64,000 nucleotides of DNA from an uncultured Desulfobacteraceae bacterium (lineage in GTDB: Bacteria; Desulfobacterota; DSM-4660; Desulfatiglandales; HGW-15). Where the stretch lies: contig CAZFMX010000001.1 of the NCBI GenBank assembly GCA_964520425.1, positions 48,764 to 112,763 on the forward strand. Direction: 5' to 3'. The position numbers and the translations under genes were made by a program. A model generated the notes under the pieces. It was not told where the DNA came from and did no database searches. It saw only the letters and a list, made by a program, of their open reading frames with translations. Below, one piece after another: positions 7,876 to 27,946 of the stretch (position 1 is its first letter; every line of letters begins with the position of its first letter).

Positions 7876-9591
7876 ATGAAAATACTCCAATTGAAAAAGC
7901 TGTATGTACCTGCCTATTCCATTGTCGCCGTAGTGCTTCTGTTGTTCGTGCTTATCAGCGTGTCCACATACCGCAATCTGAATCGGGACAAAACGAGGGC
8001 CCTGGAATTCGTCCATCGCCAGGCGCTGTCGTTGATACGCACACTGGAAATCGGTGTAAAGGTTGGAATGAATCAGTCTTATAACAAAGAGGATCCCGAA
8101 CTTATAGGAAGACTGATTCATGAAGAGGGAAAGGATGAAGAGATTGACTATATCTATTTAACGGATGACCAAGGCAACATTCTTTATCATTCCGATCCCT
8201 CACAGGAAGGAAGACGTTCCGATCTTAACTCGCCATTAGAAAGCAAGGATCAAATTCAAAGCCGATTCAGAGAGTTTACAAATGGCTCCAGCGTGTATGA
8301 ATTGACCAAGTGTTTTTTACCTTTTAATAAATCTGCTCCTCAGTCAAAATGCGACCATACTCTTGTTCTAGCTATGAAGATGAACGCCTATGAAGAGGCG
8401 CGCCAAACTGATTTCCATCATGCCTTGATTATGGCTGGTATTGTTGTGACCTTGGGTTCTGCAGTACTCTTTTTTGTGTTCGTTATCCAGAACTATTATC
8501 TGGTGAGGGGGACACTTAAAGAGACTCAAGACTATACCAGGCAAGTCGTGGCCAACATGGCCAACGGTCTGCTGAGCATTAATCCTCAGGGAAGGGTCGT
8601 CTCTTACAATCTCTTGGCCTTGGAGTTGCTCGGTATTGAAGAATCTGAGGCCCGGGGAATGGACTTGAACAAGTATCTTGATTTCCAGATGAGCGGCATT
8701 GATGAAACCCTTACTCAATGTTACTCCGTTCTGGAGCGGGAGATCCATCATCAAAAAGGATCAGGTGAAGTGGTTCCCTTGGCATTAAGCGTATCACCGA
8801 TCTTGGATGAGAACGAGAAGTGTAAAGCGGCCGTGATCGTGCTTCGGGATTTGAGGGAAATCAAAAGATTGGAGGAAAAGGTCAAGCGTACGGAAAAACT
8901 TGCTGCGATCGGAAAACTCGCAGCCGGTGTAGCCCATGAGATTCGAAATCCCTTAGGTTCGGTCCGGGGTTTTGCACAGTTTTTGAGCCATTCCCTGAAA
9001 GACCATCCACAAGAACGAGAATACTCTGAGACCATGGTCAAAGAAGTGGATAGAATCGACAGGGTCGTCACAGACCTTCTCACCTTTGCCCGGCCTTTAG
9101 AAGCACGATTGGCTCCTGTGGATGTAAACGGATTGGTGGAGCACACATTACGATTGGTGCACGCAGATGCCCAGAATCGAGGGATCGAAATACGCAGAGC
9201 CATTTCATCTGGTCTAAGAGAGATTCTTTTGGATGATACACAGATGACACAAGCCCTCCTCAACCTTTTACTCAATGCCATACAAGCCATAGAGACCGAA
9301 GGCAACATCGAAGTGGGCGCGAACCTGGATGAACATGGCACACACCTCAATATCTGGGTCGAAAGCGATGGCCCCAGTATCCCACCTGGGCAAAGGGAGA
9401 GAATCTTCGATCCTTTTTTCACGACCCGAAAAAAAGGAACGGGACTGGGATTGGCCATTGTCCACAAGATCGCGGAAAATCATGGGGGTGAAATCTTGTT
9501 AGAGAGCCCTCTTTCTGATAAAGATCGTGGATGCCGCTTTACCATCGCCATCCCGATAGACGCAGATATCACGGATTCTCAAACATCTTAA
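7876..9591 (+). CDS. sensor histidine kinase, ZraS/AtoS-like (periplasmic domain, PAS, HisKA, HATPase_c)
   Basis: Two TM segments bracket an about 150 aa periplasmic region. A PAS-like segment follows. H-box AGVAHEIRNPLGSV; N and G boxes LLLNAIQA and GTGLGLAI. ATG 7876 is preferred over the TTG at 7861. Confidence 0.9.
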   Translation: MKILQLKKLYVPAYSIVAVVLLLFVLISVSTYRNLNRDKTRALEFVHRQALSLIRTLEIGVKVGMNQSYNKEDPELIGRLIHEEGKDEEIDYIYLTDDQGNILYHSDPSQEGRRSDLNSPLESKDQIQSRFREFTNGSSVYELTKCFLPFNKSAPQSKCDHTLVLAMKMNAYEEARQTDFHHALIMAGIVVTLGSAVLFFVFVIQNYYLVRGTLKETQDYTRQVVANMANGLLSINPQGRVVSYNLLALELLGIEESEARGMDLNKYLDFQMSGIDETLTQCYSVLEREIHHQKGSGEVVPLALSVSPILDENEKCKAAVIVLRDLREIKRLEEKVKRTEKLAAIGKLAAGVAHEIRNPLGSVRGFAQFLSHSLKDHPQEREYSETMVKEVDRIDRVVTDLLTFARPLEARLAPVDVNGLVEHTLRLVHADAQNRGIEIRRAISSGLREILLDDTQMTQALLNLLLNAIQAIETEGNIEVGANLDEHGTHLNIWVESDGPSIPPGQRERIFDPFFTTRKKGTGLGLAIVHKIAENHGGEILLESPLSDKDRGCRFTIAIPIDADITDSQTS

Positions 9592-9617: not shown

Positions 9618-10973
9618 ATGAAAAAGAAGATTCTGGTCGTAGACGATGAACTCGCACACAGGCAAATGCTTGACGCCGTCCTCTCTAAAGAGGGGTATGA
9701 GGTCCGTAAGGCTGATGACGGGGAGTCGGCCATTGCCGCAGTGGAAGAGCAGTTTTATGACCTTATTCTTATGGATATCCGTATGAGCCGTGTTGGGGGC
9801 ATAGAGGCCCTGGAGAAAATCAAAGAAATCAGCCCGGGAATCCCTATTATTATCATGACCGCCTATGCATCCGTGAGTACGGCCATTGACGCCTTAAAGA
9901 AAGGAGCCTTCGATTATCTGACAAAGCCGCTCGATATTGAAGAGCTGAAGATTCTGGTCAACAAGGCCCTGCGGCACCATCAACTGGAGCAAGAGAATCT
10001 GATTCTCAAAGAACAATTGGGCAACCGATTTGATTTCTCAAACATCATCGGCAGAAGCGCTGCCATGCGGGAACTATTTGAGACTATAGCACTGGTAGCA
10101 CCGACAGATGCTACTGTGCTGATCACCGGTGGGAGCGGGACGGGAAAGGAACTTATTGCCAATGCCATCCATCAGAACAGCCCGCGGCGGGATCGGCCCT
10201 TTATCAAGGTAAACTGCGCAACCCTGCCTGAAACCCTTCTGGAAAGCGAACTTTTCGGTCACGAAAAAGGGGCCTTCACTGGCGCGGTTGCTCGAAAAAG
10301 GGGTCGTTTTCATTTAGCCCATACCGGTTCCATCTTCTTGGACGAAATCGCCGAGATGACAACGGTGACCCAAGCAAAGATCCTTCGCGTGCTTCAGGAA
10401 CGCCAGTTTGAATCCCTGGGGAGTTCGCATACCGTGGAGGTCGACACTCGGGTGATTGCGGCTACAAATAGAAACCTTGAAGAAGATATTCGTGAAGGTC
10501 GGTTTCGAGAGGACCTCTATTACCGACTGAATGTCGTCACCCTAGAAATTCCGCCACTTCATGAACGCCGAGAGGATATCCCCTTGCTGTCGGAGTTCTT
10601 TCGAAAACAATACGCGGAAAAGAACCAGCGCCTTATCAAGGGATTTAATCCGCGTGCCATGGACCTGCTCATGCGCTACGAATGGCCCGGTAATGTCCGG
10701 GAATTAGAGAATGTGGTGGAGCGAGCCGTGATTATGGCTCGGGGCGACATGATCACTCCTACAGAATTCCCGGATGTCTTGAAAGACCTGGATCCCGAAA
10801 TTTCAGAGATTGAGGTCGATTTAACACCCGGCAGATCTCTCAAAGAGGTTGAAAAAGAGATGATCATCAGGACTCTTGAGGAGACGGGTGGCAACCGTAC
10901 TCACGCGGCTGAAATCCTTGGCATTAGCCGCCGTACACTACAGCTTAAACTCAAAGACTATCAGATCAAATGA
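9618..10973 (+). CDS. sigma-54-dependent response regulator (NtrC/ZraR family bEBP)
   Basis: Receiver (ILVVDDE, LILMDIRM), AAA+ Walker A GGSGTGKE, the ESELFGHEKGAFTGA GAFTGA motif, and a C-terminal Fis-type HTH (NRTHAAEILGISRRTLQLKLK). Confidence 0.95.
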   Translation: MKKKILVVDDELAHRQMLDAVLSKEGYEVRKADDGESAIAAVEEQFYDLILMDIRMSRVGGIEALEKIKEISPGIPIIIMTAYASVSTAIDALKKGAFDYLTKPLDIEELKILVNKALRHHQLEQENLILKEQLGNRFDFSNIIGRSAAMRELFETIALVAPTDATVLITGGSGTGKELIANAIHQNSPRRDRPFIKVNCATLPETLLESELFGHEKGAFTGAVARKRGRFHLAHTGSIFLDEIAEMTTVTQAKILRVLQERQFESLGSSHTVEVDTRVIAATNRNLEEDIREGRFREDLYYRLNVVTLEIPPLHERREDIPLLSEFFRKQYAEKNQRLIKGFNPRAMDLLMRYEWPGNVRELENVVERAVIMARGDMITPTEFPDVLKDLDPEISEIEVDLTPGRSLKEVEKEMIIRTLEETGGNRTHAAEILGISRRTLQLKLKDYQIK

Positions 10974-11032: not shown

Positions 11033-11093
11033 TGCAAAAAATTTTCGCATCCAGTTCCAATCTGATCGGATACAAGCGCGAAATAATTTTGCG
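11033..11093. promoter_or_regulatory. pair of similar imperfect palindromes, candidate bEBP upstream activating sites
   Basis: TGCAAAAAATTTTCGCA (11033-11049) and CGCGAAATAATTTTGCG (11077-11093) share GC(A/G)AAA-N-TTT(T/C)GC half sites. Their centres are about 44 bp apart and lie 140-200 bp upstream of the sigma-54 promoter at 11234. Confidence 0.35.
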
Positions 11094-11233: not shown

Positions 11234-11249
11234 TGGCACACGCCTTGCT
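11234..11249 (+). promoter_or_regulatory. sigma-54 (-24/-12) promoter
   Basis: TGGCACACGCCTTGCT matches TGGCAC-N5-TTGCW exactly in spacing and in the core GG/GC. It lies about 65 nt upstream of ATG 11314 and directly downstream of a sigma-54 activator gene. Confidence 0.8.
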
Positions 11250-11313
11250 TTGAAACATTCACAGAACACATTACCCGCTGTATATCAAGATTATTATTCA
11301 AGGGAGAAATTTG

Positions 11314-12576
11314 ATGAAAACAAGACGATTGGGCATGGGACAGTCTCATGTAAAAAAGGCAATGAAGCACGAGAAGATTACACGGGATTTTCATCTGAAA
11401 ACTATGTTGGGATTAATGCTGGTCACCCTATTGGTGGTTGGATGCAGTGGTGAGGGCGGTGGCCTCGTCGGTGGCGACGGGAGTTCTTCGGAAGCCTTAC
11501 TCCAGGGGATATTTATGGACAGTGCGGTCGAGGGGCTGGAGTATGAGACTGAAACCCAATTCGGTGTGACCGATCATGACGGGACTTTCATGTACATGGA
11601 AGGAGAAACCGTCATGTTTCACGTTGGAGATATCGTATTGGGAGAGGCTCATGCTCAATCCATGATGACACCGATCGATCTGGTAAATGGCGCCATGGAT
11701 GAAACCCATCCCATGGTCATCAACATGGCCCGGTTTATTCAGACCCTGGATGAGGACATGGATCCTGAAAACGGGATTACCATTACCGAAGAGATGAGGA
11801 CCGCAATGATCGGCCACATGATAGATTTCAATATGGACCCAGACTTATTTGAGTATGATCCTGATGTTCAGATGTTCATGCATACGCTCAACGGGATGCA
11901 TTCATCGGGTTCCATGAGAATGATGGTGTCCGCCGAAAACGCGAAGTGGCACCTCCATATTACGATAATGGGGATGATGGACTTTGTGACGGCTGGAAGG
12001 TTTTTGGACAGTTCAGTTGAGGGACTTGAATATCAGACTCAAATGCATTTTGGTGTGACGGATCAAAACGGTACCTTTATATACATGGAAGGAGAGACTG
12101 TCATGTTTCACGTCGGGGATATTGTATTGGGAGAGGCCCATGCTCAATCCATAATGACGCCGATCGATCTGGTGGATGGCGCCACGGATGAAACCCATCC
12201 CATGGTCATCAACATGGCCCGGTTCCTTCAGACCCTGGATGAGGACATGGATTCCGAAAACGGGATTACTATTACCGACGAAGTGAGGGCCGTGATGGTC
12301 GGTCACATGATTGATTTTGATATGGCCCCGGACCTTTTTGAGTATGATCCTGATGTTCAGCTGTTTTTGGATACGCTCAATGGAGTCTTTTCATCGGGTC
12401 CCATGAGAATGATGGTGTCCGCTGAAGATGCTCAGGATCACTTGCGTAAGACAATGGAGGAGATGATGTCGGACGATTCTGGGATGATGGACGATGAAAA
12501 CATGATGGATGGTAACAGCGGCATGACTACGAGTGATACCGATTCAATGGCGGGTGACATGAATCTGATGGGTTAA
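11314..12576 (+). CDS. Met-rich lipoprotein with internal tandem duplication and Met/Asp-rich tail (putative periplasmic Cu(I)/Ag(I)-binding protein)
   Basis: Lipobox LLVVGCSG. About 50 Met in about 420 aa by my count. Two about 163 aa repeats. C-terminal tail MMSDDSGMMDDENMMDGNSGM...MAGDMNLMG. AGGGAG RBS precedes ATG 11314. The N-region is unusually long, so a later Met start is possible. Confidence 0.7.
   Translation: MKTRRLGMGQSHVKKAMKHEKITRDFHLKTMLGLMLVTLLVVGCSGEGGGLVGGDGSSSEALLQGIFMDSAVEGLEYETETQFGVTDHDGTFMYMEGETVMFHVGDIVLGEAHAQSMMTPIDLVNGAMDETHPMVINMARFIQTLDEDMDPENGITITEEMRTAMIGHMIDFNMDPDLFEYDPDVQMFMHTLNGMHSSGSMRMMVSAENAKWHLHITIMGMMDFVTAGRFLDSSVEGLEYQTQMHFGVTDQNGTFIYMEGETVMFHVGDIVLGEAHAQSIMTPIDLVDGATDETHPMVINMARFLQTLDEDMDSENGITITDEVRAVMVGHMIDFDMAPDLFEYDPDVQLFLDTLNGVFSSGPMRMMVSAEDAQDHLRKTMEEMMSDDSGMMDDENMMDGNSGMTTSDTDSMAGDMNLMG
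11497..12474 (+). repeat. in-gene tandem duplication, 2 x 489 bp (163 aa)
   Basis: GGAC at 11517 aligns with GGAC at 12006, giving a period of 489 bp. Long near-identical blocks are present, for example ATGGAAGGAGA.ACCGTCATGTTTCACGT and GATGAAACCCATCCCATGGTCATCAACATGGCCCGGTT. Confidence 0.9.
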
Positions 12577-12667
12577 AAGGCGGATATATTCAACTGTTTC
12601 CTACTAAAACTCGTTCTTGTATACCCACAATAATAAAACTAAACATGAGAAAAAGGAGGTTTTTAAG

Positions 12668-13141
12668 ATGAAAAAGACATTGGGAATCATATGTGGCGGA
12701 GTGCTTATTCTTCTCGTCCTTTCCGGTATCTCATTCGCCGGAACGAACGGAGATCATATGGGAGATGGGATGACGGGGGGCAGTTCCCCGCGAATGGACC
12801 AAATCAGTGGAAACGGGGAAGGCGACCATTCTCATGGCGCCCATCAGCAACACCAGATGCAAACCATGGGTCAGAACATGTCTGATCCCGATATTCACAA
12901 TGAAATCATGGACCGGAAGATGAAGGAATCGGATTTAATGAATAAAGAGATCGATTTAAAACCACAAACCGTTTGCCCAGTCATGGGGGGCAAAATAGAT
13001 AAGAATGTTTACGTTGATTACCAAGGGCAGCGAGTCTATTTCTGTTGTTCGAGCTGCAAGGCAGCATTTCTTAAAGAACCGGAAAAATACATGAAGAAAC
13101 TTGCGGAAGAGAAGGTGTTATTGGAGAAGTCCACGCAGTAG
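12668..13141 (+). CDS. secreted YHS/TRASH-domain protein with His/Met-rich linker (putative periplasmic metallochaperone)
   Basis: Signal peptide MKKTLGIICGGVLILLVLSGISFA. His/Met-rich stretch GDHSHGAHQQHQMQTMGQNM. YHS-type motif CPVMGGKIDKNVYVDYQGQRVYFCCSSCKAAFLKEPEKY. AAAGGAGG RBS precedes ATG 12668. Confidence 0.8.
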   Translation: MKKTLGIICGGVLILLVLSGISFAGTNGDHMGDGMTGGSSPRMDQISGNGEGDHSHGAHQQHQMQTMGQNMSDPDIHNEIMDRKMKESDLMNKEIDLKPQTVCPVMGGKIDKNVYVDYQGQRVYFCCSSCKAAFLKEPEKYMKKLAEEKVLLEKSTQ

Positions 13142-13346: not shown

Positions 13347-13931
13347 CTATTCCTCTTTCAACCGATCCTCCATTTCCTGAGCGATATCGATCATTTTTAC
13401 ATCACCACTTGTGGTATAATCGCCTATTTTTATTTCGGTTATCTCACGCAAAGATTTGATAACGGCGTCTATCTTTCGGCCCTGTTCTTCTATCACCTCC
13501 AAGGCCTCCAGGATATCTCCATTTGAGGTGGCTTTTTGGGAATGCCTGGTTTTCCCGCCAATGATCATATTGGCATTAAGAAGGTGATGGGATAGGGTGA
13601 CCATAAGCTTTCTAATGGTCTCTAATGCGAGTCTCTTTTTCTCGTTTTCATACTCGGAGGCGATCAGCCTCTTTTTTCTGTCAATAATTGTGGCTGAAAG
13701 AAGTCCAATAAAGCCACCGAAAACGGTAAAGGCGATGGCCATAGGAAACATCGACGGCTCTAAAGCCAAAATCGAATATATGCTCAGATCATCCCAATAT
13801 GCATGAATTCCGTTATATTCATGCCCAGGCATAAAAGTGTACACCAGCATGGTGAAGGGATGAAGAATGAGAAAGCCGCCAGCCATTCCCAAGAGAACAA
13901 ACAATACTTTTCCTTTGTTGATTTTCGACAT
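13347..13931 (-). CDS. membrane protein with DHp (HisKA)-like helical domain but no ATPase domain
   Basis: Two or three TM segments are followed by ALETIRKLMVTLSHHLLNANMIIGG, which resembles an H-box. The protein ends about 70 aa later with no N/G boxes. Start taken at MSKINKGK (ATG complement at 13929-13931). Confidence 0.45.
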   Translation of the reverse strand: MSKINKGKVLFVLLGMAGGFLILHPFTMLVYTFMPGHEYNGIHAYWDDLSIYSILALEPSMFPMAIAFTVFGGFIGLLSATIIDRKKRLIASEYENEKKRLALETIRKLMVTLSHHLLNANMIIGGKTRHSQKATSNGDILEALEVIEEQGRKIDAVIKSLREITEIKIGDYTTSGDVKMIDIAQEMEDRLKEE

Positions 13932-14113
13932 AAGGTTTCTCTGGTGGTAAATGTTAAGGAATATCAACGTATTATATCTTAAAATGACGAAGCCTGAAAG
14001 GCTTGGCAAGGCAATTGAGCGCATTGTATGCTAAAATCGGCATGAAGTACATTTCAAATGACTGAAATTCCAAAGATAGATAAATATTTCCATGTGAGGG
14101 AGGACTATTAACC

Positions 14114-14440
14114 ATGAAAGAGAAAAGTCTCAGAATATTACATCGCCGAATGGGCATTATACTCGCCCTGTTCATTATTCTCCAGGCAGGGAGCGGCTTA
14201 TTAATCAGCTTTGGAGAAATAGAAACACCACACAGCCACGCATATAGTGACGGTGCGGCTCATTCTGAAATTCACCACCGGGGAGAGTCCATTCTTGAAA
14301 CATCAATTTCATTCATTCATCATGGTGCAGGTACAACCGGAGATATTTACCGCATCCTATTGGGAATAGGAATACTTGGAATGGTTGTTACAGGAACAAT
14401 GATCCACTTCAAAATCAGGGCCCGCGCCAAAAGAGAGTGA
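14114..14440 (+). CDS. small His-rich membrane protein (PepSY-TM-like N-terminal helix)
   Basis: LHRRMGIILALFIILQAGSGLLI resembles the PepSY-associated TM helix. A His-rich loop (ETPHSHAYSDGAAHSEIHHRGE, FIHHGAG) and a second TM helix follow. Confidence 0.5.
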   Translation: MKEKSLRILHRRMGIILALFIILQAGSGLLISFGEIETPHSHAYSDGAAHSEIHHRGESILETSISFIHHGAGTTGDIYRILLGIGILGMVVTGTMIHFKIRARAKRE

Positions 14441-17466: not shown

Positions 17467-19932
17467 ATGCACAATAATGAACATTCCGGTCATCAAACCA
17501 TGGGTCATGATGAATTCACTGACCCTGTTTGCGGCATGAAGACCGACAAAGTAGGCAAGTTCCTCCAGTACGAACATGATGGAAAAAACTACTATTTTTG
17601 CAGCAGTCATTGCCTTGAAAAATTTAAAGATGATCCCCAGAAATATATCCATGCAATGCCTTCCGAAACTGTTGAATCCCGATCAAATGGGGATACAGGG
17701 AGACTTTACATCTGTCCCATGGACCCCGAAGTAGAGCAATACGGTCCCGGAACGTGCCCCAAATGCGGTATGGCGCTCGAGCCGGCAACAACTGTGCCTC
17801 CTGCTTCTCATACGGAATATGTCTGCCCCATGCATCCGGAAGTGGTTCAGGATCAGCCGGGGAATTGCCCAAAATGCGGCATGGCGCTCGAGGCTCGCGT
17901 CACTTCCCTTGATGAGGAAGAAAAAAATCCTGAATACGAGGATATGCGGAAACGATTTATCATCGGCGGCATACTCACCTTGCCGCTGGTGATAATCGCC
18001 ATGCGCGAGCTCATTCCGGGGGGCCGTATTCTTGACTCGATTGCCTCGGCCAGGATCTATGAATGGCTGGAATTAATTCTCGCGACCCCTGTGGTGCTCT
18101 GGGCCGGATGGCCCTTTTTTATCAGAGGGGTGCAATCCGTGATCAACCGGAGCCTCAACATGTTCACACTCATCGGCCTTGGGGTCTCGGTAGCCTATAT
18201 ATACAGCCTGGTGGCCGTCTTTTTCCCTGAATTATTTCCAGAGGCTATGCGATCAGCCGAGGGCAATGTCGGCGTTTATTTTGAGGCATCGGCTGTAATT
18301 GTTACTCTCATCCTGATGGGCCAGGTTTTAGAATTGCGGGCCCGGAGCCGCACTGGTGCAGCTATCAAGGCGCTTTTAGGCCTTGCCCCGAAGACGGCCA
18401 GAAAAATCAGTGAAACAGGTGAAGAGACGGATATCCCCCTCGACCAAGTCGAGGCGGGAGATAAGCTGAGAGTGCGTCCGGGTGAAAAAATCCCGGTAGA
18501 TGGTATCGTGCTGGAGGGATCGAGCAGTGTAGATGAATCCATGATCACCGGCGAACCTATCCCTGTGGAAAAAAATGCTGGCGACAGGGTAATCGGGGCC
18601 ACGGTAAACGGTACCGGCACGATTATTATGCGGGCGGAAAAGGTGGGCACTGAAACAGTTCTGTCGCAAATCGTCAGGATGGTAGCGGAAGCCCAGAGAA
18701 GTAGGGCCCCAATTCAGAAACTGGCGGATATTGTCGCCGGTTATTTTGTTCCTACCGTTATCGCCGTTGCCGTCTTATCCTTTGTGATCTGGTTTATTGT
18801 CGGTCCTGCTCCGAGGTTAGCCGCTGCTCTCATAGCGGCGGTATCGGTGCTCATTATTGCATGCCCCTGCGCTCTGGGTCTCGCCACTCCAATGTCTATA
18901 ATGGTTGCGACCGGTAAAGGTGCTACCATGGGTGTGTTGTTTAGAAACGCGGAGGCTATAGAGACCCTCCGTAAGATCGATACGCTTGTCGTCGATAAAA
19001 CCGGCACACTTACAGAAGGGAGTCCAAAATTAACAAAGGTCATTGGGGTGAATGATTTTGATGAAAACAGGGTCCTTTCCCTTGCCGCGACGCTGGAGAA
19101 GGGAAGCGAACATCCCCTAGCCGCAGCCATACTTTCGGGGGCGATGGATAGAGGTGTGACGCTCGGCGTTGCGAACGATTTTACATCTCACACCGGAATG
19201 GGTGTTTCCGGCAATGTGGACAATCATCAGGTCGCATTGGGCAATATGAAGTTGATGCAGGATTTCGGGGCGGACCCCGGCAGCATACAGGACCGGGCCG
19301 GAAATTTGCGGGACGAAGGCGAGACCGTCATGTTTGTGGCAATAGACGGAAAAGTTGCGGGCCTGGTTGGAGTGGCCGACCCTATTAAAAAAACAACGCC
19401 TGAGGCGATTAAACAACTGCATCGGGAAAATATCAGGATTGTTATGCTTACAGGTGACAGCCGGGCCACCGCTGAGGCTGTTGCCCGAAAACTCAATATC
19501 GATGAAGTCGTGGCGGAGGTCTTGCCCGATGAAAAGGCAGCGGCAGTCAAACGGTTTCAGGAGGCAGGGTACATGGTGGCTATGGCAGGAGACGGCATCA
19601 ATGATGCCCCGGCCCTTGCCCAGGCAGAGGTGGGAATCGCCATGGGAACCGGTACGGATGTGGCCATGGAAAGTGCGGGTGTCACCCTTGTTAAAGGGGA
19701 CCTCCTTGGCATTCTAAAGGCAAGGCTTCTGAGCCGGGCCACCATGCGCAATATCAAACAGAACCTCTTTTTCGCTTTTATTTACAATAGCATTGGTGTA
19801 CCGATTGCTGCCGGAGTATTGTATCCATTTTTTGGCATATTATTGAGCCCTATGATCGCCGCACTGGCCATGAGCTTCAGCTCTGTTTCGGTGGTCGGCA
19901 ATGCCTTGCGCTTACGGACCGTGAAGATCTAA
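17467..19932 (+). CDS. copA: copper/silver-translocating P1B-type ATPase with N-terminal YHS plus two HMBD-type Cys4 metal-binding modules
   Basis: CPC motif ([12 protein letters not shown]), DKTGTLT, SEHPLA, MLTGD and [10 protein letters not shown]. The N-terminus carries DPVCGMKTD...[12 protein letters not shown] (YHS) and two [18 protein letters not shown] repeats. GGGGAGG RBS precedes ATG 17467. Confidence 0.95.
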
Positions 19933-20586
19933 AAGGCCGAACAAATTAGAGGGAGAAAGGAATCAAATTCTGAATACCGGCAATTCCTAAAGAAGTTTAA
20001 CAATCCTATGGAAAGCAGGCTTCCTGCCGACATATTTACTTGGGGAAATGTCATAGCATGGAATGCTAAACTGAAATATTATGTAACATGCTAAAACAAG
20101 TCGACTTTTTCGCAAGACATGTCAGGACGTCTTCCCGGTGCGCATTAATTTCGCACCTGGGATATTTTTCATAGCTGAAACTGCGCATTTCTTTTGCATC
20201 GCCTTAGCGACGCCTCCAATCTTAGCGCTAGACGGTCATGGGGGAATAGTGGAAGAAACGAGGCTATAGAGAGAAGGTGATTCTTCTTGATAACCTCTTG
20301 AAAACATGCAGTAAACACCAGCTTGAATAACCAGCTCCGGTCCCCAATAACCAAAAAAAGGAGCTTTGATGATTCAAGGAAAAGCGACTCAGGCATTGAT
20401 CTTGCGAAATGATCAGTTGAATAGTAAAAATGACGCTCTTATATTGAAAGCGTCGTGAGGAGTTCAGGGTATTATCGTTTGCGATGTCACTTGGTTTGAG
20501 AACGCTTCTTGAGAATCATGATTCAAGAGTAGAATCGAGTTGTGAAGCGACCGATACGCTTCTATTCGAAATGGGGAGGCGAAACG

Positions 20587-21969
20587 ATGACAATCATACG
20601 AAACTCATTAGTACTGATTGGTGTCTTTGTTCTTGTAACGGCTTGTGCAACGGTTCAGGAAAAGCAGGCTTTTTCGGATTGGAACAAGGAGGCTCGGAAA
20701 TGGAGTAGAACTGTCGAGGAAGATGTGGATCTACCTGAGCTGGATGAAAAAGCCTCACTTGATGACTACGTGCTCTACGCCATGCTCAACAACCCAGGAC
20801 TACGGGCAGCCTTTGACCGCTGGAAAGCGGCACTCGACAAAGTAGGTCCCGCTCAGACCCTTCCTGACCCTCGTTTTACTTATGCCAACTATGTTCGTGA
20901 AGTGGAGACCCGCGTCGGCGCTCAGGAGCAAAAATTCGGCCTAGCCCAGACCTTCCCATGGTTTGGCAAGCTGGATCTTCAGGGCGACATCGCGCTTCAG
21001 GCGGCTCATGCCGAACAGCAGCGTTATGAAGCCGCCAAATTGGGTTTGATGTACCGGGTCAAAAACATCTATTACGAATACGCGTATCTGGCAGAGGCCA
21101 TTGAGATCACAAAAAATAATCTGACCCTCCTCACTTATTTGGAAGGGGTTGCACGAACAAAATACAAGAGCGGAGAAGGACTTCAGAGCGCTGTGATTAA
21201 GGCCCAGGTGGAGTTGGGCAAATTGGAGGATCGTTTGCACTCCCTTCAGGATTTGATGAGGCCTATGGTGACAAAACTGAACATGGCACTGAACCGTCCT
21301 TCGAATATGCCTCTTCCCATGCCAAAAGGCCTGCCTCAAGAAAAACCTGCTTTCGATGATGATGCCCTGTTCGCTTTACTGCATGAGAATAATCCGAATC
21401 TCAAGGCCTTTGATTACATGACAACCAAAGAGGATCTGGCAATCCGACTTGCAGAAAAAAACCATTTCCCCGATGTGACTCTTGGTGTGGATTACATCGA
21501 TACCGCCTCCCGTACTGATGCAAATCCCGTTGACAATGGCAAGGATCCTGTCGTTGCTATGTTATCTTTCAACCTGCCCATATGGCAGCAGAAATATGAC
21601 GCCGTCACATCCGAAGCCAGAGCGCGTCGTCGAGCAGTCGTGCGTGAAAAAAAGGAAAAAGAGAATCTACTCATTGCAGACCTTGAGGTAGCCCTCTTCG
21701 GGCTACGTGACGCGGATCGAAAAATCGACCTGTATCGGGATACCCTGCTCCCAAAGGTAGAGCAAAGCTTAAAGATCACGGAACTGGCATTTACGGCAGA
21801 AAAGGCGACTTTTCTCGACCTGATTGATTCACAACGAATCCTTCTTGGATTCCAGCTTGAACACAAACGAGCCCTCGCCGATCGCGCCCAGCGAGTGGCA
21901 GAGATCGAGATGCTCACGGGTGGGAGTATGGGTCAGAAGCTTCTTGAACGAAGCAATGAGGAGAAATGA
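20587..21969 (+). CDS. cusC: TolC-family outer membrane efflux lipoprotein (CusC-like)
   Basis: Lipobox VLVTAC and two OEP-type repeats. It lies directly upstream of, and overlapping, the adaptor gene. GGGGAGG RBS precedes ATG 20587. Confidence 0.85.
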   Translation: MTIIRNSLVLIGVFVLVTACATVQEKQAFSDWNKEARKWSRTVEEDVDLPELDEKASLDDYVLYAMLNNPGLRAAFDRWKAALDKVGPAQTLPDPRFTYANYVREVETRVGAQEQKFGLAQTFPWFGKLDLQGDIALQAAHAEQQRYEAAKLGLMYRVKNIYYEYAYLAEAIEITKNNLTLLTYLEGVARTKYKSGEGLQSAVIKAQVELGKLEDRLHSLQDLMRPMVTKLNMALNRPSNMPLPMPKGLPQEKPAFDDDALFALLHENNPNLKAFDYMTTKEDLAIRLAEKNHFPDVTLGVDYIDTASRTDANPVDNGKDPVVAMLSFNLPIWQQKYDAVTSEARARRRAVVREKKEKENLLIADLEVALFGLRDADRKIDLYRDTLLPKVEQSLKITELAFTAEKATFLDLIDSQRILLGFQLEHKRALADRAQRVAEIEMLTGGSMGQKLLERSNEEK

Positions 21970-23996
21970 TCATGAAAAAAATCATAACGAGAATGATGGA
22001 AAAGAACAGAATGAGACGATTTGTCTTCCCTCTCATTCTAGTGGTTATCGCCTTTCTTTTTGGGTTTATGCTCCGGGGCGGTGGAACGGAAATAGCTATG
22101 GAGCCTGAAGTCCATGAACATGCCTCCGAAGAGACCCAAGCACAGATATGGACCTGTTCCATGCACCCGCAGATCCGCATGTCTCATCCGGGAAAATGCC
22201 CCATTTGCGGCATGGACCTTATACCGGTTGCCAGCGGTAATCATGCTGAAAAAATGGGCGATCGTGAGTTGAAACTCTCACCATTGGCCATGAAGCTGGC
22301 CGACATACAAACCGTCCCTGTAGAGCGAAAATATGTTTCAGTGTCCATCCGAATGGTGGGTAAGGTGGATTATGATGAAACCCGTGTGGGGCACATTACA
22401 GCGTGGGTGCCCGGACGGCTCGACCGCCTTTATGTGGATTATACCGGCATCTCTGTGAGAAAGGGCGACCATATGGTCTATCTATACAGCCCCGAACTCC
22501 TAACCGCCCAGGAGGAATTGATTCAGGCTATTCGGGCATTGGGCGAACTCAAGGAAAGCGGAATGAAAATCATGCGCGAGACTGCCTCGCAGACAGTTGA
22601 AGCCTCCAGAGAGAAACTCCGTTTGTGGGGACTGACCGAAAAGCAGATCACCGAGATTGAGAAGAGCGGAGAGGCTTCTGATCACATCACGATCTACTCC
22701 CCCATGGGAGGTGTAGTTATTGAAAAGCATGTGGAGGAAGGAGAGTACGTTAAAACCGGTACGCGTCTTTACACTATCGCTGACCTTTCACACTTATGGA
22801 TAAGACTGGACGCCTACGAATCAGATCTTGTATGGCTCCGGTATGGCCAAGAGGTCCAGATTGAAACTGAGGCCTATCCGGGTGAGGTATTCAAAGGGAC
22901 CATTGCATTTATTGATCCGGTCCTTGATACAAAAACCAGAACAGTAAAGGTGCGTGTCAACGTCCCCAATACCGACGGCCGGCTGAAGCCGGAGATGTTT
23001 GTCCACACCACGGTCCATGCCCGTGTGGCCGCATCCGGCAAGGTGATGGATGAAGCCTTGGCAGGCAAGTGGATCTGCCCTATGCATCCGGATATCATTA
23101 AGGATCAAGCCGGTTCCTGTGACATCTGCGGCATGCCGTTGGCGCGTACGGAATCACTGGGATATGCCTCTGTCTCAGGCGATGAGGAAGATACCGCTCC
23201 GCTCGTGATTCCCGCATCCGCCCCTCTTATCACGGGTAAGCGAGCCGTTGTGTACGTGGCTCATTCCGAGAAAGAAGGGATTTTTGAAGGACGTGAAATC
23301 GTTTTGGGTTCCAGGGCCGGAGATTATTATCTCGTCAGTGATGGTCTTGAGCAGGGTGAAAGAGTGGTCGTGAACGGCAATTTCAAGATTGATAGCGCCC
23401 TTCAAATCCTTGCAAAGCCCAGCATGATGAGTCCTGAGGGAGGCGTACCGATGACAGGCCATGCCCTTCACGGGGATATGGTGATGCCCCAGAAGGAGGC
23501 CAAGGATACTCCAAAAACCGCAAAGCAGGAGACACAAGCGCCCCTGGCATTTAGGGAACAGATCGATGGGGTTTTGATCGCCTATTTTGAGATTCAAAAG
23601 GAACTCTATCGGGATGAGGCAAAGGAGGTCAGAAAGGGGAGTAAGAGCCTGCTGAACGCCCTCAGAACAGTCGATATGGAACTATTAAGTGGGAATGCCC
23701 ATATGGCTTGGATGAAGGAACTCAAAGATCTTAACGAACAAGCTTCAGCTCTGGAGAAGACTTCGGATATCAACAAGCAACGAGAAGCCTTTTACCTGGT
23801 TTCCGAGACCCTCACATCGGTCGTCAAACAATTCGGAACCAGCGGGAAACGGGCTGTCCTGCAATTCCATTGTCCCATGGCATTCGAAGGCAGAGGAGCC
23901 GATTGGTTGCAGAACGAATCCGAAGTACAAAACCCCTATTTTGGACAGGCTATGCCCCGGTGCGGAGAAGAGATCGCGACTTTGGTGCAACCTTAG
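21966..23996 (+). CDS. cusB: efflux RND periplasmic adaptor (CusB-like) with two HMBD Cys4 modules and DUF3347-like C-terminus
   Basis: HlyD/MFP core (ITAWVPGRLDRLYVDYTG...). CSMHPQIRMSHPGKCPICGMDL and CPMHPDIIKDQAGSCDICGMPL are present. The helical C-terminal region is similar to DUF3347. ATGA overlap with the cusC stop. Confidence 0.9.
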   Translation: MIMKKIITRMMEKNRMRRFVFPLILVVIAFLFGFMLRGGGTEIAMEPEVHEHASEETQAQIWTCSMHPQIRMSHPGKCPICGMDLIPVASGNHAEKMGDRELKLSPLAMKLADIQTVPVERKYVSVSIRMVGKVDYDETRVGHITAWVPGRLDRLYVDYTGISVRKGDHMVYLYSPELLTAQEELIQAIRALGELKESGMKIMRETASQTVEASREKLRLWGLTEKQITEIEKSGEASDHITIYSPMGGVVIEKHVEEGEYVKTGTRLYTIADLSHLWIRLDAYESDLVWLRYGQEVQIETEAYPGEVFKGTIAFIDPVLDTKTRTVKVRVNVPNTDGRLKPEMFVHTTVHARVAASGKVMDEALAGKWICPMHPDIIKDQAGSCDICGMPLARTESLGYASVSGDEEDTAPLVIPASAPLITGKRAVVYVAHSEKEGIFEGREIVLGSRAGDYYLVSDGLEQGERVVVNGNFKIDSALQILAKPSMMSPEGGVPMTGHALHGDMVMPQKEAKDTPKTAKQETQAPLAFREQIDGVLIAYFEIQKELYRDEAKEVRKGSKSLLNALRTVDMELLSGNAHMAWMKELKDLNEQASALEKTSDINKQREAFYLVSETLTSVVKQFGTSGKRAVLQFHCPMAFEGRGADWLQNESEVQNPYFGQAMPRCGEEIATLVQP

Positions 23997-24028
23997 CTAC
24001 CTTCGCTTTGGCAACATAGGAGAATACC

Positions 24029-27000
24029 ATGGCAGATGATGTTCGCACAGATAAAGGAACCACACCTTCCATTCTGGACCGGGTGATACGGTTTTTTCTG
24101 GAAAATAAACTCGTCGTGATCCTGATGATACTCCTTGTTGTGACATGGGGAATCATGGTTGCGCCATTTGATTGGGACACAGGATCCCTGCCACGCGATC
24201 CGGTGCCTGTGGACGCGATCCCCGACATCGGAGAGAACCAACAGATCGTTTTTACTCAGTGGATGGGGCGTTCTCCTCAGGACGTGGAAGATCAGGTGTC
24301 CTATCCATTGACTGTGGCACTGTTGGGCGTCCCCAAGGTCAAGACCATCCGCAGTTATTCCATGTTCGGATTCTCGATCGTTTATGTCATCTTCAAGGAA
24401 GATGCTGAATTTTATTGGTCCAGATCCCGGGTGCTCGAAAAGCTGAACAGCCTGCCGCCCGAAACCCTGCCGGAAGGGGTTCAGCCCATGCTGGGGCCGG
24501 ATGCCACGGCCTTGGGCCAGATATACTGGTATACACTGGAAGGCCGTGATTCCAAAGGCCACCCAACGGGCGGGTGGGATCTGCAAGAACTCCGTTCCAT
24601 ACAGGATTGGACCGTGCGCTATGCCCTGATGGGGGCGGAGGGCGTGAGTGAAGTGGCCTCTGTGGGCGGTTTTGTGAAGGAATATCAGATTGACGTGGAC
24701 CCCGATGCCATGCGGGCCTGGAACGTGAAACTGGAGGAGGTTTTCCGTGCCGTCAAGATGTCCAATAAAGATGTCGGGGCCAGGACTATCGAGATCAACC
24801 GCGCCGAGTACATCATCCGTGGAATCGGTTTTGTGAAAAGCCTATCCGACCTGGAAAACGCCGTCATCAAAGTCAATGACAATGTGCCGGTCTACGTCAA
24901 GAACGTGGCCCATGTCAGCCTGGGACCGGCATTACGGCGGGGGGCTCTGGACAAGGAAGGCGCTGAGGTGGTTGGCGGTGTCGTTGTGGTGCGTTATGGA
25001 GAAAACCCGCTGGCCGCCATCAAGAATGTCAAAAAAAAGATTGCCGAAATCGCGCCGGGACTCCCCAAAAAGACACTTCCGGACGGGACTGTGAGTCAGG
25101 TAACCATTGTCCCTTTTTACGACCGCACTACCCTGATCAACGAGACATTGGGAACGCTCAATACCGCCTTGACAGAAGAAATCCTGGTCACCATCATTGT
25201 CATCCTGTTCATGTTAATGCATTTGAGGAGTTCCATACTTGTGGCAGGCCTGCTTCCCCTGGCCGTTCTCATGTGTTTTGTCGCCATGAAGCTTTTTGGC
25301 GTGGATGCCAACATTGTGGCCTTATCAGGTATTGCCATAGCCATCGGCACCATGGTGGACATGGGCATTGTCTTATGTGAGAATATCGTGAGGCGGCTGG
25401 AGGAGGCCGGGCCGGACCAGAGCCGCCTCGAGGTCATCTATAGCGCTTCTATTGAGGTGGGGAGCGCCGTACTCACGGCCGTGTCCACCACCGTAATCGG
25501 GTTTCTGCCGGTCTTCACCATGCAAGCGGCCGAAGGCAAGCTGTTTAAACCTCTGGCATTTACTAAGACATTCGCCCTCATTTCCTCGGTCATCGTCGCC
25601 CTGACCATCATCCCGGCTCTGGCCCATCTACTCTTTTCCAGTAGCTTCAAGGTCAAAAGACTAAGGGGCATCACCCACTGGGCTTTGATTGTGTTGGGCA
25701 TCATTGTGGCCTTTATCCTAAATGTATTTTTAGGTGTTTTACTTGCTCTTGTTGGCGCCTTTCACCTGGTTGAATCACGAGTTCCGCAGATCATCAAACG
25801 TGCTGTTCCCTATTTGCTGGTAGCCGCTGTGCTCCTGTTTTTTATCATTGTGTTGAGTGAGCACTGGCTGCCCATGGGACCGGAACAGGGCATTGTCCGT
25901 AATTTCATCTTTGTTGTTATGGTCATTGGCGGGTTGTTGCTGTCCATCCAGTTCTTTATTCGTGTGTACCGACCGATCCTGGCCTGGTGTCTGGACCACA
26001 AGACACTTTTTTCAATGATCCCCCTGGCCATTCTTCTTTTTGGAGGGATGACCTGGCTGGGCTTTGACAGTTTCTTCGGATGGCTTCCTGACGGGATTAA
26101 AAACAGCCGGATTGTGTCACCCATCGCGAATCGATTCCCCGGGTTGGGCAAGGAATTCATGCCGCCGCTGGATGAGGGGTCATTTCTCTATATGCCCACC
26201 ACCATGCCCCATGCTTCCATCGGTGAGGCCCTGGACGTATTGCAGAAACAGGACATGTCTTTCCGTGATATTCCAGAAATCGAATCCGTTGTGGGCAAAC
26301 TGGGGCGCGCTGACACACCGCTTGATCCTGCCCCCATTTCAATGATTGAAACCGTCATCAATTATAAGAGTAAGTATGTTGTCGATAAAAAAGGACGACG
26401 GGTCACGTTCAAATTCGACGAAGATCAAACAGATCTCTTCCGCGACGTCAACGGAGTGCCTCTATCCGCCCCTGACGGGGAACCCTTTTTCGTGCGGGGG
26501 TTATACCCAAGGGATAATTCAGGTCGTCTCATCCCGGACAAGGACGGCAAACCTTTTCGCTTATGGCGGCCGGTCCTGGATCCCGATCTTAAAGGCCGTT
26601 TAGAAGATGGTACTGTGTCGGATCTCAACTCCGGTCGCGAGGCGTGGAAAGGGATTCAAAGTCCGGATGACATATGGGACGGGATCGTGAAGGCTGGAGA
26701 AATTCCGGGGACCACTTCAGCACCGAGACTCCAACCCATTGCAGCGCGTATCGTGATGCTCCAGAGCGGCATGCGGGCCCCCATGGGAATCAAGGTGAAG
26801 GGTCCCAGCCTGGAGATCATTGAGAAGGTGGGTCTCCAACTGGAACGGTTTCTCAAGGAGGTCCCATCCGTGGAGCCTTCTGCTGTGATCGCGGACCGCA
26901 TCGTGGGCAAGCCCTACCTGGAGATAAAGATTGATCGTGAAGCCATCGCCCGCTACGGTATCATGCTGGAAAAGGTCCAGGATGTCATTGAAATCGCCAT

Positions 27001-27946
27001 CGGAGGCAGGCCAATTACCACAACCGTGGAAGGGCGTGAACGCTATCCGGTCCGGGTCCGCTACCTGCGGGAGTTGCGTGACAGCATCGAGGACATCGGG
27101 CGTATCCTTGTGCCGGCAGCAGGCGGGGCGCAGATCCCCTTAGCACAATTGGCTGAAATCAAATATGTCCGCGGCCCACAGGTCATCAAGAGTGAGGACA
27201 CTTTCTTGATAGGCTATGTGCTTTTTGACAAACGGGAAGGCTGGGCCGAGGTGGATGTAGTGGAGCAGGCAGGGGCCTATCTAAATGAAAAGATCAAGAA
27301 TGGTGAATTTGAATTGCCGGCAGGTGTCAGCTACACCTTTGCCGGGAGTTATGAAAATCAGGTCCGATCGGAGAAGAAACTGATGGTCGTCCTTCCTTTG
27401 GCGCTTTTTGCCATTTTTCTCATTCTCTATTTTCAATTCCATTCCGTATCAACAACATTACTCGTTTTCTCCGGTATCTTTGTGGCCTGGGCAGGCGGCT
27501 TTATGCTCATCTGGCTCTACGCCCAGCCCTGGTTTATGAATTTTTCGGTCTTCGGTAGCCATATGCGGGATTTTTTTCAGGTCCATCCCATCAACCTGAG
27601 TGTCGCCGTATGGGTGGGTTTCCTCGCCCTTTTCGGCATTGCCTCGGATAACGGCGTGATCATGGCGACCTATCTCAATCAGACTTTTGATCGGACCAAA
27701 CCTGAATCGGTCAAAACCATCCGCGAAGCCACCATCGAAGCCGGTATGCGGAGGGTGAGGCCGTGTCTCATGACTACAGCCACAACCATCCTGGCGCTTG
27801 TGCCGGTACTCGCGTCTACGGGTCGCGGTTCCGATATCATGGTGCCCATGGCCATCCCGTCGTTCGGCGGGATGCTTGTCGTGATCGTGAGTATCTTTAT
27901 CGTACCGGTCCTCTACTGTGCTATCAGAGAGTATAGGTTAAAGTAA
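24029..27946 (+). CDS. cusA: CusA/CzcA-family heavy-metal RND permease, long (1305 aa) variant
   Basis: Collinear with E. coli CusA as I recall it. This includes the contexts of the Met triad (LYMPTT, SMIETV, IVMLQSG). It carries extra hydrophobic and periplasmic insertions. Confidence 0.9.
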   Translation: MADDVRTDKGTTPSILDRVIRFFLENKLVVILMILLVVTWGIMVAPFDWDTGSLPRDPVPVDAIPDIGENQQIVFTQWMGRSPQDVEDQVSYPLTVALLGVPKVKTIRSYSMFGFSIVYVIFKEDAEFYWSRSRVLEKLNSLPPETLPEGVQPMLGPDATALGQIYWYTLEGRDSKGHPTGGWDLQELRSIQDWTVRYALMGAEGVSEVASVGGFVKEYQIDVDPDAMRAWNVKLEEVFRAVKMSNKDVGARTIEINRAEYIIRGIGFVKSLSDLENAVIKVNDNVPVYVKNVAHVSLGPALRRGALDKEGAEVVGGVVVVRYGENPLAAIKNVKKKIAEIAPGLPKKTLPDGTVSQVTIVPFYDRTTLINETLGTLNTALTEEILVTIIVILFMLMHLRSSILVAGLLPLAVLMCFVAMKLFGVDANIVALSGIAIAIGTMVDMGIVLCENIVRRLEEAGPDQSRLEVIYSASIEVGSAVLTAVSTTVIGFLPVFTMQAAEGKLFKPLAFTKTFALISSVIVALTIIPALAHLLFSSSFKVKRLRGITHWALIVLGIIVAFILNVFLGVLLALVGAFHLVESRVPQIIKRAVPYLLVAAVLLFFIIVLSEHWLPMGPEQGIVRNFIFVVMVIGGLLLSIQFFIRVYRPILAWCLDHKTLFSMIPLAILLFGGMTWLGFDSFFGWLPDGIKNSRIVSPIANRFPGLGKEFMPPLDEGSFLYMPTTMPHASIGEALDVLQKQDMSFRDIPEIESVVGKLGRADTPLDPAPISMIETVINYKSKYVVDKKGRRVTFKFDEDQTDLFRDVNGVPLSAPDGEPFFVRGLYPRDNSGRLIPDKDGKPFRLWRPVLDPDLKGRLEDGTVSDLNSGREAWKGIQSPDDIWDGIVKAGEIPGTTSAPRLQPIAARIVMLQSGMRAPMGIKVKGPSLEIIEKVGLQLERFLKEVPSVEPSAVIADRIVGKPYLEIKIDREAIARYGIMLEKVQDVIEIAIGGRPITTTVEGRERYPVRVRYLRELRDSIEDIGRILVPAAGGAQIPLAQLAEIKYVRGPQVIKSEDTFLIGYVLFDKREGWAEVDVVEQAGAYLNEKIKNGEFELPAGVSYTFAGSYENQVRSEKKLMVVLPLALFAIFLILYFQFHSVSTTLLVFSGIFVAWAGGFMLIWLYAQPWFMNFSVFGSHMRDFFQVHPINLSVAVWVGFLALFGIASDNGVIMATYLNQTFDRTKPESVKTIREATIEAGMRRVRPCLMTTATTILALVPVLASTGRGSDIMVPMAIPSFGGMLVVIVSIFIVPVLYCAIREYRLK

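Follow-up and report, generated by a model that had tools for sequence, protein, structure and literature searches.

The question raised by this locus is what two exported proteins encoded behind a sigma-54 promoter do for their bacterium, and to which metal, if any, they respond. The locus occupies positions 11,234 to 13,141 of a 64,000-nt stretch from an uncultured Desulfobacteraceae bacterium (GCA_964520425.1, contig CAZFMX010000001.1, positions 48,764 to 112,763 of the forward strand), hereafter called the window, to which all coordinates refer. It contains a gene for a Met-rich lipoprotein and a gene for a secreted YHS/TRASH protein, preceded by genes for a sensor kinase and a sigma-54 activator. 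The initial annotation, made from the letters without database searches, had taken this arrangement for a candidate copper/silver analogue of the Zra envelope module of Escherichia coli. Our analysis argues for an envelope Cu/Ag-stress module in which the two-component system would drive the lipoprotein-YHS operon, with the lipoprotein as a thioether buffer and the YHS protein as a thiol carrier. We put the probability of this reading at about 0.6, since everything downstream of the sequence is inferred. The features concerned are:

7876..9591, + strand: sensor histidine kinase with PAS, HisKA and HATPase_c domains (Pfam) and two transmembrane segments
9618..10973, + strand: NtrC-type sigma-54 enhancer-binding response regulator (Response_reg, Sigma54_activat, AAA_lid_14, HTH_8)
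11034..11048, no strand assigned: putative binding site 1 of the activator, the palindrome GCAAAAAATTTTCGC, located 200 nt upstream of the -24 element
11078..11092, no strand assigned: putative binding site 2 of the activator, the palindrome GCGAAATAATTTTGC, located 156 nt upstream of the -24 element
11234..11249, + strand: sigma-54 promoter TGGCACACGCCTTGCT, unique exact consensus match, with equivalents before 10/16 Met-rich homologues
11314..12576, + strand: Met-rich lipoprotein gene, 420 aa (404 aa from the alternative start at 11362); ribosome-binding site (RBS) AGGGAG
11443-11445, + strand: codon of the lipobox Cys44 (LVVG-C44)
11485..11982, + strand: repeat 1, in which a small helical subdomain follows a beta-sandwich (AlphaFold2 model)
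11983..12465, + strand: repeat 2, the same domain as repeat 1 (489-nt period, 86% DNA identity)
12475..12573, + strand: Met/Asp/Gly C-terminal tail, predicted to be disordered (residues 388-420, predicted local distance difference test (pLDDT) ~36)
12668..13141, + strand: secreted YHS/TRASH protein, 157 aa (PF04945); RBS AAGGAGG
12668-12739, + strand: signal peptide of the YHS protein, ending in SFA before G (from the sequence)
about 12977-13093, + strand: YHS domain (PF04945, residues 104-142)

Gene content around Met-rich and Met-poor homologues

Loci encoding homologues of the lipoprotein were collected by exact look-ups of close homologues and by a scan of one genome per species with a 12-sequence alignment; they are designated here by L numbers. 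With thresholds of at least 5.9% Met for the Met-rich class and at most 2.9% Met for the Met-poor class, 16 distinct loci fell into the former and about 68 into the latter. An orthologous kinase and activator were encoded within 5 kb in 10 of the 16 Met-rich loci and in 0 of the ~68 Met-poor loci (Fisher p=3e-9), and CusCBA-type or CopA genes were found in 9 and 0, respectively (Fisher p=3e-8). With either or both counted, 15 of the 16 Met-rich loci carried the two-component system and/or CusCBA/CopA genes, as against none of the ~68 Met-poor ones. Co-occurrence with NtrC-type regulators, put forward initially as a check, is seen for the lipoprotein in these Met-rich loci, and the Cu/Ag reading fits this context, as far as gene content can tell.

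The arrangement of the genes varied among the Met-rich loci. The order kinase, activator, promoter and lipoprotein is shared by the window and L004, and the order promoter, lipoprotein, kinase and activator is found in L014, L018 and L034. The lipoprotein gene lies on the strand opposite to the kinase and activator genes in L003, L008, L011, L016 and L020, is divergent from cusCBA in L026, L027 and L039, and adjoins csoR-copA in L006. Genes for other small secreted Met/His-rich proteins also cluster in Met-rich loci.

The sigma-54 promoter and candidate operator

TGGCACACGCCTTGCT carries all 11 consensus bases (11/11) of a -24/-12 sigma-54 promoter, with GG and GC doublets 10 nt apart, and its 3' end lies 64 nt from the lipoprotein ATG (11314), a suitable distance to a gene start. 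It is the sole exact match to TGGCAC-N5-TTGCW in the window, where 0.04 would be expected by chance; with one mismatch allowed there are 4 matches versus 1.6 expected. The near-consensus promoter of the initial annotation, at 11234-11249, is therefore an exact match and the only one in the window. One-mismatch sigma-54-like sites occur elsewhere in the window at 48534-48549 (- strand) and 54164-54179 (+ strand).

Promoters were then scored in the homologous loci as matching at least 10 of 11 bases, with GG and GC intact, at most 350 nt upstream and on the same strand. Such a promoter precedes 10 of the 16 Met-rich and 2 of the 65 Met-poor genes (Fisher p=2e-7). In one more Met-rich locus, L003, it heads an operon of four genes. 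Its recurrence before diverged Met-rich homologues, together with a conserved upstream palindrome, makes the sigma-54 dependence claimed for this operon plausible.

The two candidate palindromes, GCAAAAAATTTTCGC and GCGAAATAATTTTGC, are both near-perfect and lie 44 nt apart, and their distances of 200 and 156 nt are typical for the binding sites of NtrC-type activators. An operator pattern, GCRAAA-N3-TTTYGC, was derived from the window and searched in the other Met-rich loci, with the window excluded. The pattern was 18-50x enriched at -250 to -80 of the sigma-54 promoters relative to the rest of these loci. L004 carries two palindromes, at -192 and -148, which are 44 nt apart like those of the window, and palindromes at comparable distances from the promoter were also found in L039, L027 and L001; overall, the palindrome, GCGAAA-N3-TTTCGC, turns up again between -110 and -220 of sigma-54 promoters in related loci. 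A search of Rfam gave no match between 7000 and 21000.

A metagenome scan anchored on the sensor domain of the kinase yielded 80 loci with orthologous kinases, mostly with the activator gene following the kinase gene (L095-L174). In about 14 of them, the cusC gene of a divergent cusCBA cluster is located behind a sigma-54 promoter. Sigma-54 promoters in these loci also precede genes for 85-residue YHS proteins without signal peptides (PF04945, 49 bits), ZraP-family proteins (PF13801, 50.6 and 30.6 bits), DUF6488 proteins (PF20098; with an HGGKH motif), RseC/MucC proteins (PF04246) and assorted exported Met/His-rich proteins. The palindrome was present upstream of 10/10 of the cusC promoters (with no more than 2 mismatches, several of the loci being close relatives), 6/9 of the DUF6488 promoters and 4/7 of the YHS promoters. 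Since the palindrome is common to the orthologous-kinase loci, it ties the window operon to the regulon of this activator family, of which we predict the operon to be a part. Examples of sigma-54 promoters near kinase orthologues are those of L120 (5970), L130 (4113), L122 (4772) and L125 (4891).

These data suggest a broader regulon with variable membership around the kinase orthologues. The window itself contains no ZraP-like gene (by tblastn with the proteins of related loci) and no DUF6488 or RseC gene. As the genes behind the sigma-54 promoters of the kinase loci are so varied, the system is best described as a sigma-54 envelope-metal two-component system with variable exported cargo, of which the Met-rich lipoprotein is one optional member.

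The Met-rich lipoprotein and its domain family

The signal peptide of the lipoprotein ends in a lipobox (...LLVVG-C44-SGEGGG), so that lipidation is predicted, and Cys44 is invariant among the two-domain homologues. The protein contains 12.2-12.4% Met and 10% Asp. A bias in genome composition was considered as the cause of this Met richness and rejected, since the other proteins encoded in the window contain 2-4% Met. Most of the protein consists of two 163-aa repeats with a period of 489 nt, which share 86% identity in DNA over 300 nt and ~75-80% identity in protein. The lipoprotein with about 12% Met, a 163-aa repeat and a Met/Asp tail that was described initially is thus confirmed in each of these points.

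AlphaFold2 modelling of a single repeat from a 75-sequence alignment gave a pLDDT of 96.5 and a predicted template-modelling score (pTM) of 0.91, the predicted fold having seven beta strands and, behind them, a small helical portion. The model of the full-length protein gives each repeat a pLDDT of ~90, leaves their mutual orientation undefined (pTM 0.48) and shows the linker after the Cys (residues 42-59) and the tail (residues 388-420) as disordered. No match to the lipoprotein or its repeat was found in Pfam, and Foldseek found no match in the PDB for the whole repeat at E<0.001; the beta-sandwich half alone resembles generic Ig- or carboxypeptidase-regulatory-like folds. A profile search with the repeat matched residues 274-331 of PDB 23px (SslE) through the beta part (E=3e-10), and the repeat matched positions 170-269 of NF037974, the SslE/AcfD metalloprotease model, at 44.6 bits versus a cutoff of 800, which places the protein outside that full-length family. 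The proposed profile and structure check of the 163-aa repeat has therefore given a confident fold, although neither a Pfam model nor a solved structure covers the whole unit.

When one repeat was searched against 1.84 billion cluster representatives, 6172 were found at E<=1e-3 and 3321 at E<=1e-10, a family for which there is no Pfam model. In most members the domain is located directly after the lipobox, and the modules downstream of it vary, including beta-lactamase-type hydrolases, DM13, EF-hands and Big_2, as well as giant proteins. The domain was also observed inside giant proteins (up to ~7000 residues) and in SslE/AcfD. It had been suggested that the repeat is an unrecognised domain and that its identification as a known non-metal domain would refute the metal-binding claim. 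This is partly what was found, since the domain is generic, Met-poor and present in SslE/AcfD; the metal signal resides in the Met-rich subfamily only.

The Met content of the folded domain is bimodal, being mostly 0-2% with a second group at 6-15%; for the Met-rich subfamily the range is 6-16% Met. The nearest neighbour of a Met-rich member was also Met-rich in 60 of 63 cases. When the Met positions were masked, the Met-rich members still formed a few nearly pure clusters, indicating that they represent a lineage rather than scattered compositional outliers. The nearest relatives of the lipoprotein come from Desulfobacteraceae and Desulfobacterales metagenome-assembled genomes, and since pairwise identities among the Met-rich proteins do not exceed 77%, these proteins represent separate lineages. 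In comparison with the Met-poor relatives, Met replaces hydrophobic residues at positions 51, 61, 81, 104, 132, 147, 157, 161 and 165 and polar residues at positions 36, 38, 56, 77, 112, 117, 144 and 146. In the hairpin FMYMEGETVMFH, M36, M38, M44 and H46 alternate with the conserved F35, Y37 and F45, and the former would form a surface patch. A low-complexity tail of Met, Gly and Asp, often ending in GGGMM, is present in almost all Met-rich members. Searches of the literature on Met-rich copper lipoproteins brought up no homologue of the lipoprotein that has been characterised.

The secreted YHS protein

The second gene of the operon encodes a signal-peptide-bearing YHS/TRASH protein with a His/Met-rich linker, as the initial annotation had it. 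Its PF04945 score is 37.2 bits versus a cutoff of 30.3, the Cys residues read from the translation follow the pattern C-x21-CC-x2-C, and the linker is ~70 aa long and rich in His, Met, Gly and Gln. Homologues of the YHS domain are abundant as single (~91 aa) or tandem (~131-142 aa) proteins, which carry only the source label 'YHS domain-containing protein'; signal-peptide-like N-termini were seen in 115 of the 120 listed relatives, and the His/Met linker was shared by one relative only, P0122 (77% identity). In L093 and L006, a gene for a secreted tandem-YHS protein is located directly after cusCBA or abuts cusA. Searches of the literature on periplasmic YHS proteins likewise brought up no characterised homologue of the secreted YHS proteins. 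The stand-alone secreted YHS protein, not recognised initially as a characterised copper-resistance component, belongs to a large and uncharacterised family; it is not unusual in itself, being encoded elsewhere by the gene following cusCBA.

The lipoprotein and YHS genes are separated by 91 nt. No sigma-70-like promoter or intrinsic terminator was identified between them, and none was clearly present after the YHS gene. Given this short gap and the strong RBS of the YHS gene itself, the two genes are probably co-transcribed.

The kinase and the activator

Pfam domains confirmed the kinase and the sigma-54 activator that had been read from the sequence. The kinase has a periplasmic domain of ~150 aa between its two transmembrane segments, followed by the PAS, HisKA and HATPase_c domains. 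In the activator, the receiver (PF00072, 112 bits), Sigma54_activat (PF00158, 240.9 bits) and Fis-type helix-turn-helix (PF02954, 66 bits) domains were detected and the GAFTGA motif of the AAA+ domain was read from the translation, which places it among the NtrC-family enhancer-binding regulators.

The two proteins had been called ZraSR-like. Against the NCBIfam models, the kinase scored 335.8 for AtoS and 329.3 for ZraS (cutoff 479), and the activator scored 561.4 for AtoC and 516.5 for ZraR (cutoff 760). Orthology to ZraS/ZraR was therefore rejected, as the equivalog cutoffs (NF007688, NF007689) were not reached and the AtoS/AtoC scores were equal or higher; with all four scores below cutoff, the proteins form an NtrC-family two-component system that is orthologous to neither E. 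coli pair. The orthologues of the kinase encoded beside Met-rich lipoprotein genes are 43-57% identical to it, and those of the activator in related loci are 57-74% identical. An alignment of seven kinase orthologues showed few invariant residues in the periplasmic domain (sensor region 7876-8580). A D-x-H-H motif is conserved at the edge of the second transmembrane segment and is a possible metal ligand pair of the kinase.

The copper island and metal specificity

Downstream of the operon are two sets of metal efflux genes:

17467..19932, + strand: P1B-type copper ATPase, with a YHS domain at its N-terminus plus two HMBD domains (TIGR01511)
20542..27946, + strand: cusC-, cusB- and cusA-type efflux genes (family models)

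The ATPase passes the NCBIfam copper-ATPase model TIGR01511 (610.7 versus 397). The resistance-nodulation-division pump (24029-27946) passes TIGR00914, the model for CusA/CzcA heavy-metal efflux (778.4 versus 701.45), and among solved structures E. coli CusA is its closest relative (637 bits versus 421 for ZneA). Met occupies each of the positions that align with M573, M623 and M672, the metal triad of E. coli CusA, and by its sequence the protein qualifies as a CusA-type Cu(I)/Ag(I) pump. The CusB protein contains two HMBD domains and DUF3347. As judged from their sequences, these features of the ATPase, the pump and CusB indicate Cu(I)/Ag(I) rather than Zn/Cd.

Two further candidate palindromes, GCGCATTAATTTCGC and GCGCATTTCTTTTGC, are located at 20140-20154 and 20183-20197. 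Their spacing of 43 nt nearly equals that of the pair upstream of the lipoprotein gene (44 nt). The cusCBA genes of the window may share the regulator of the lipoprotein operon. A weak -24/-12 site, AGGCATTGATCTTGCG, lies at 20391-20406 in the gap before cusC (likely ATG at 20587).

Proposed function and alternatives

We propose that the membrane kinase (7876-9591) would sense Cu/Ag stress in the envelope and phosphorylate the NtrC-type activator (9618-10973), which would bind the palindromes at 11034-11048 and 11078-11092 and open the sigma-54 promoter (11234-11249), after which both genes of the operon would be transcribed together. The lipidated Cys44 would tether the lipoprotein to the membrane, displaying two Met-substituted scaffold domains and a floppy Met/Asp tail, and the protein would buffer periplasmic Cu(I)/Ag(I) at multiple thioether sites, from which metal may be handed to the CusCBA pump. 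The secreted YHS protein would be a small Cys-based Cu(I) carrier, extended by its His/Met linker, that may serve the Cus pump; a carrier of this type is plausible in the reducing periplasm of an anaerobe. The inducer, the co-transcription, the metal binding and the hand-off are all inferred.

Several observations weigh against this proposal. The domain of the lipoprotein was found in only 1 of the 80 orthologous-kinase loci (L132; 4.3% Met, with a sigma-54 promoter upstream), indicating that the lipoprotein is optional cargo rather than a core part of the system. A YHS gene is near the lipoprotein gene in 3 of the 16 Met-rich loci (the window, L006, and L003 with a short YHS-like open reading frame (ORF)). 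We therefore rejected the possibility that the lipoprotein and YHS genes form a conserved pair. No single cluster of Met residues is strictly conserved among the Met-rich proteins, so that no defined site emerges, and the most conserved Met residues (61, 81, 161 and 165), which are hydrophobic in the Met-poor relatives, may be buried. The cusC gene of the window lacks a strong sigma-54 promoter, whereas the cusC genes of the relatives have one, with a palindrome at about -120. Finally, the locus counts ignore shared ancestry, and many of the contigs are short.

The lipoprotein might instead be mainly an accessory to kinase signalling, a periplasmic co-sensor or feedback modulator that reports the Cu/Ag load without bulk detoxification. 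Accessory proteins of this kind are ZraP for ZraS and NlpE and CpxP for CpxA, ZraP and NlpE being precedents with a link to metals. In L014, L018 and L034 the promoter, lipoprotein, kinase and activator follow one another on one strand with gaps of 250-550 nt, while in L011, L016 and L020 the lipoprotein gene is ~50-450 nt from the kinase or activator gene. The periplasmic domain of the kinase, moreover, offers few conserved candidate ligands, only the D-x-H-H at the membrane edge. We nevertheless consider such a role unlikely as the main one, since the rarity of the lipoprotein among the 80 kinase loci implies that the kinase normally works without it, since in L001, L006, L027 and L039 the flank that was read contains Cus or CopA genes but lacks a two-component system, and since the high Met content and tandem domains suggest capacity rather than signalling. 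Buffering and co-sensing are not mutually exclusive and could coexist.

Less likely still is that the Met-rich proteins are sacrificial oxidant sinks, or that the system answers another cue such as Hg, Cd, Au, Zn, reactive chlorine species or envelope stress. Methionine is readily oxidised, and ZraSR-type systems respond to Zn/Pb and envelope stress. The periplasmic Met-rich CusF is oxidised in copper stress and repaired by MsrPQ (PMC9302797). However, the recurring neighbours of the Met-rich genes encode CusA-type pumps and copper-type P1B ATPases, the Cys-rich YHS/TRASH and HMBD domains of the same island point to chemistry of the Cu(I) type, and no Msr gene stood out among the neighbouring genes read, in which no search aimed at Msr was made. 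It would be very surprising if the lipoprotein simply kept an ancestral role of its domain, e.g. as an SslE-like surface anchor or spacer, its Met residues being drift and its promoter match fortuitous. The domain is indeed generic, with 6172 mostly Met-poor cluster representatives fused to many unrelated modules. Opposed to this are the 2-4% Met of neighbouring proteins from the same genome, the bimodal and clade-following distribution of Met, the highly non-random associations with gene context and promoter, and the 0.04 exact promoter matches expected per window; chance and compositional drift are effectively excluded.

The buffer-and-carrier module outlined above can be carried further. 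We suggest, tentatively and with doubts that exceed our confidence, that a Met-poor scaffold was converted by Met substitution, including at positions buried in the relatives, into a membrane-tethered Cu(I)/Ag(I) sponge of high capacity that feeds back to its own two-component system. If so, it would represent a previously unrecognised class of periplasmic copper resistance and sensing in anaerobic Desulfobacterota, working with Cys-based secreted YHS carriers in place of CusF. The regulatory logic and the chemistry are already known; the cargo family is new and uncharacterised. Periplasmic Cu/Ag handling is known mostly from aerobic Proteobacteria (CusF, CueO, PcoE/SilE). In anaerobes, sulfate reducers among them, the envelope in which Cu(I) is encountered is reducing, and the components involved are largely unassigned. 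The locus and its relatives define a conserved sigma-54 two-component regulon with a candidate operator motif, a Met-rich lipoprotein family, and a large family of secreted YHS proteins placed after cusCBA. The Met-rich and Met-poor branches of one well-folded domain are a natural pair for studying how Met decoration creates affinity for Cu(I)/Ag(I), and the domain itself, with thousands of members, a region in common with SslE and no Pfam model, deserves a family definition.

Comparison with known systems

Like ZraSR-ZraP, the window system combines a membrane kinase whose sensor is periplasmic with an activator of the NtrC type and a sigma-54 promoter, its main target being an adjacent exported, metal-associated protein, and orthologues of its kinase are found in loci with sigma-54-promoted ZraP-family (PF13801) genes. 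It differs in that the kinase has an extra PAS domain and in that kinase and activator score below the ZraS/ZraR cutoffs. ZraP is a Zn-binding chaperone of the Spy/CpxP type, whereas the cargo of the window would rely on thioether and thiol chemistry and neither of its proteins matches PF13801. The analogy with the zraSR-zraP layout drawn in the initial annotation consequently holds as a design, not as orthology.

In Myxococcus xanthus, CorS and CorR, the products of MXAN_3419 and MXAN_3418, have been shown experimentally to form a copper-responsive sigma-54 two-component system, which controls exported proteins, lipoproteins and a CopA ATPase (PMC3707914). CorS is described as combining a HAMP domain with a signal peptide and a single transmembrane segment, and the curA cargo comprises a cupredoxin-like protein, a multicopper oxidase and PQQ_2 and DUF305 lipoproteins (PMC3707914). 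By this published description, CorS differs in architecture from the window kinase with its two transmembrane segments and PAS domain, and the curA cargo is unrelated to the lipoprotein and YHS protein of the window. Our literature searches, which extended to sigma-54 copper systems in sulfate reducers, returned CorSR as the sole relevant precedent, one that had been missed initially. The window system is like ZraSR-ZraP in design and closer to CorSR in its predicted metal specificity.

CusF, PcoE/SilE and the Met-rich segment of CueO bind Cu(I)/Ag(I) via methionine, and E. coli cusF sits within the cusCFBA operon, a position comparable to the one that secreted YHS genes take after cusCBA in L093 and L006. 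The window proteins share with these a periplasmic location, a predicted Met-based handling of Cu(I)/Ag(I) and an association with Cus-type efflux. They are unrelated to these in sequence and fold. The lipoprotein is a folded protein with a membrane anchor, and the YHS domain would use cysteines instead of the Met2His site of CusF; neither the lipoprotein nor the YHS protein gave a CusF-family match in Pfam or NCBIfam.

SslE/AcfD proteins are likewise lipoproteins, and their N-terminal region is matched, in SslE, by the beta-sandwich half of the repeat. The window protein has no M60 peptidase domain, and SslE, like most of the family, is Met-poor; the relationship is one of a shared scaffold domain, not of shared function. 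The YHS protein belongs to the same family (PF04945) as the YHS/TRASH domains of P1B ATPases and of archaeal CopM/CopT, which are cytoplasmic (PMC5328820). It differs from them in being exported and stand-alone and in having a His/Met-rich linker.

Other genes of the island

Several further genes lie between the operon and the ATPase gene. A second sigma-54-like promoter with one mismatch, TGGCATAGATTTTGCT (15599-15614, - strand), ends 46 nt upstream of ORF 15038-15553 (- strand), which encodes a secreted protein of 171 aa that matched nothing in Pfam or NCBIfam and is followed by a receiver-only response regulator ORF (14459-14860, - strand). The pattern GCRAAA-N3-TTTYGC was not found upstream of this promoter. 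ORF 16366-16758 (+ strand) encodes a secreted 130-aa protein with 22% Met, in which runs of Met and Gly surround a short structured middle and for which no family match was found; a relative of this protein (142 aa, 16% Met) is encoded near the Met-rich lipoprotein gene of L014. The other genes of the island, at 13347-14024 (- strand), 14114-14440 (+ strand), 15954-16298 (+ strand) and 16948-17175 (+ strand), encode a membrane protein of 225 aa for which no family was found, a small His-rich membrane protein that weakly matches PepSY_TM, a P-II-like protein and a protein with a SHOCT domain. A similar set is present beside the cusCBA-YHS genes of L093, where it consists of a receiver-only regulator, a SHOCT protein and a protein of 131 aa that matches no family. 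A second kinase gene (4828-6237, + strand) and a gene for a receiver-only regulator (6234-6599, + strand) immediately precede the metal island.

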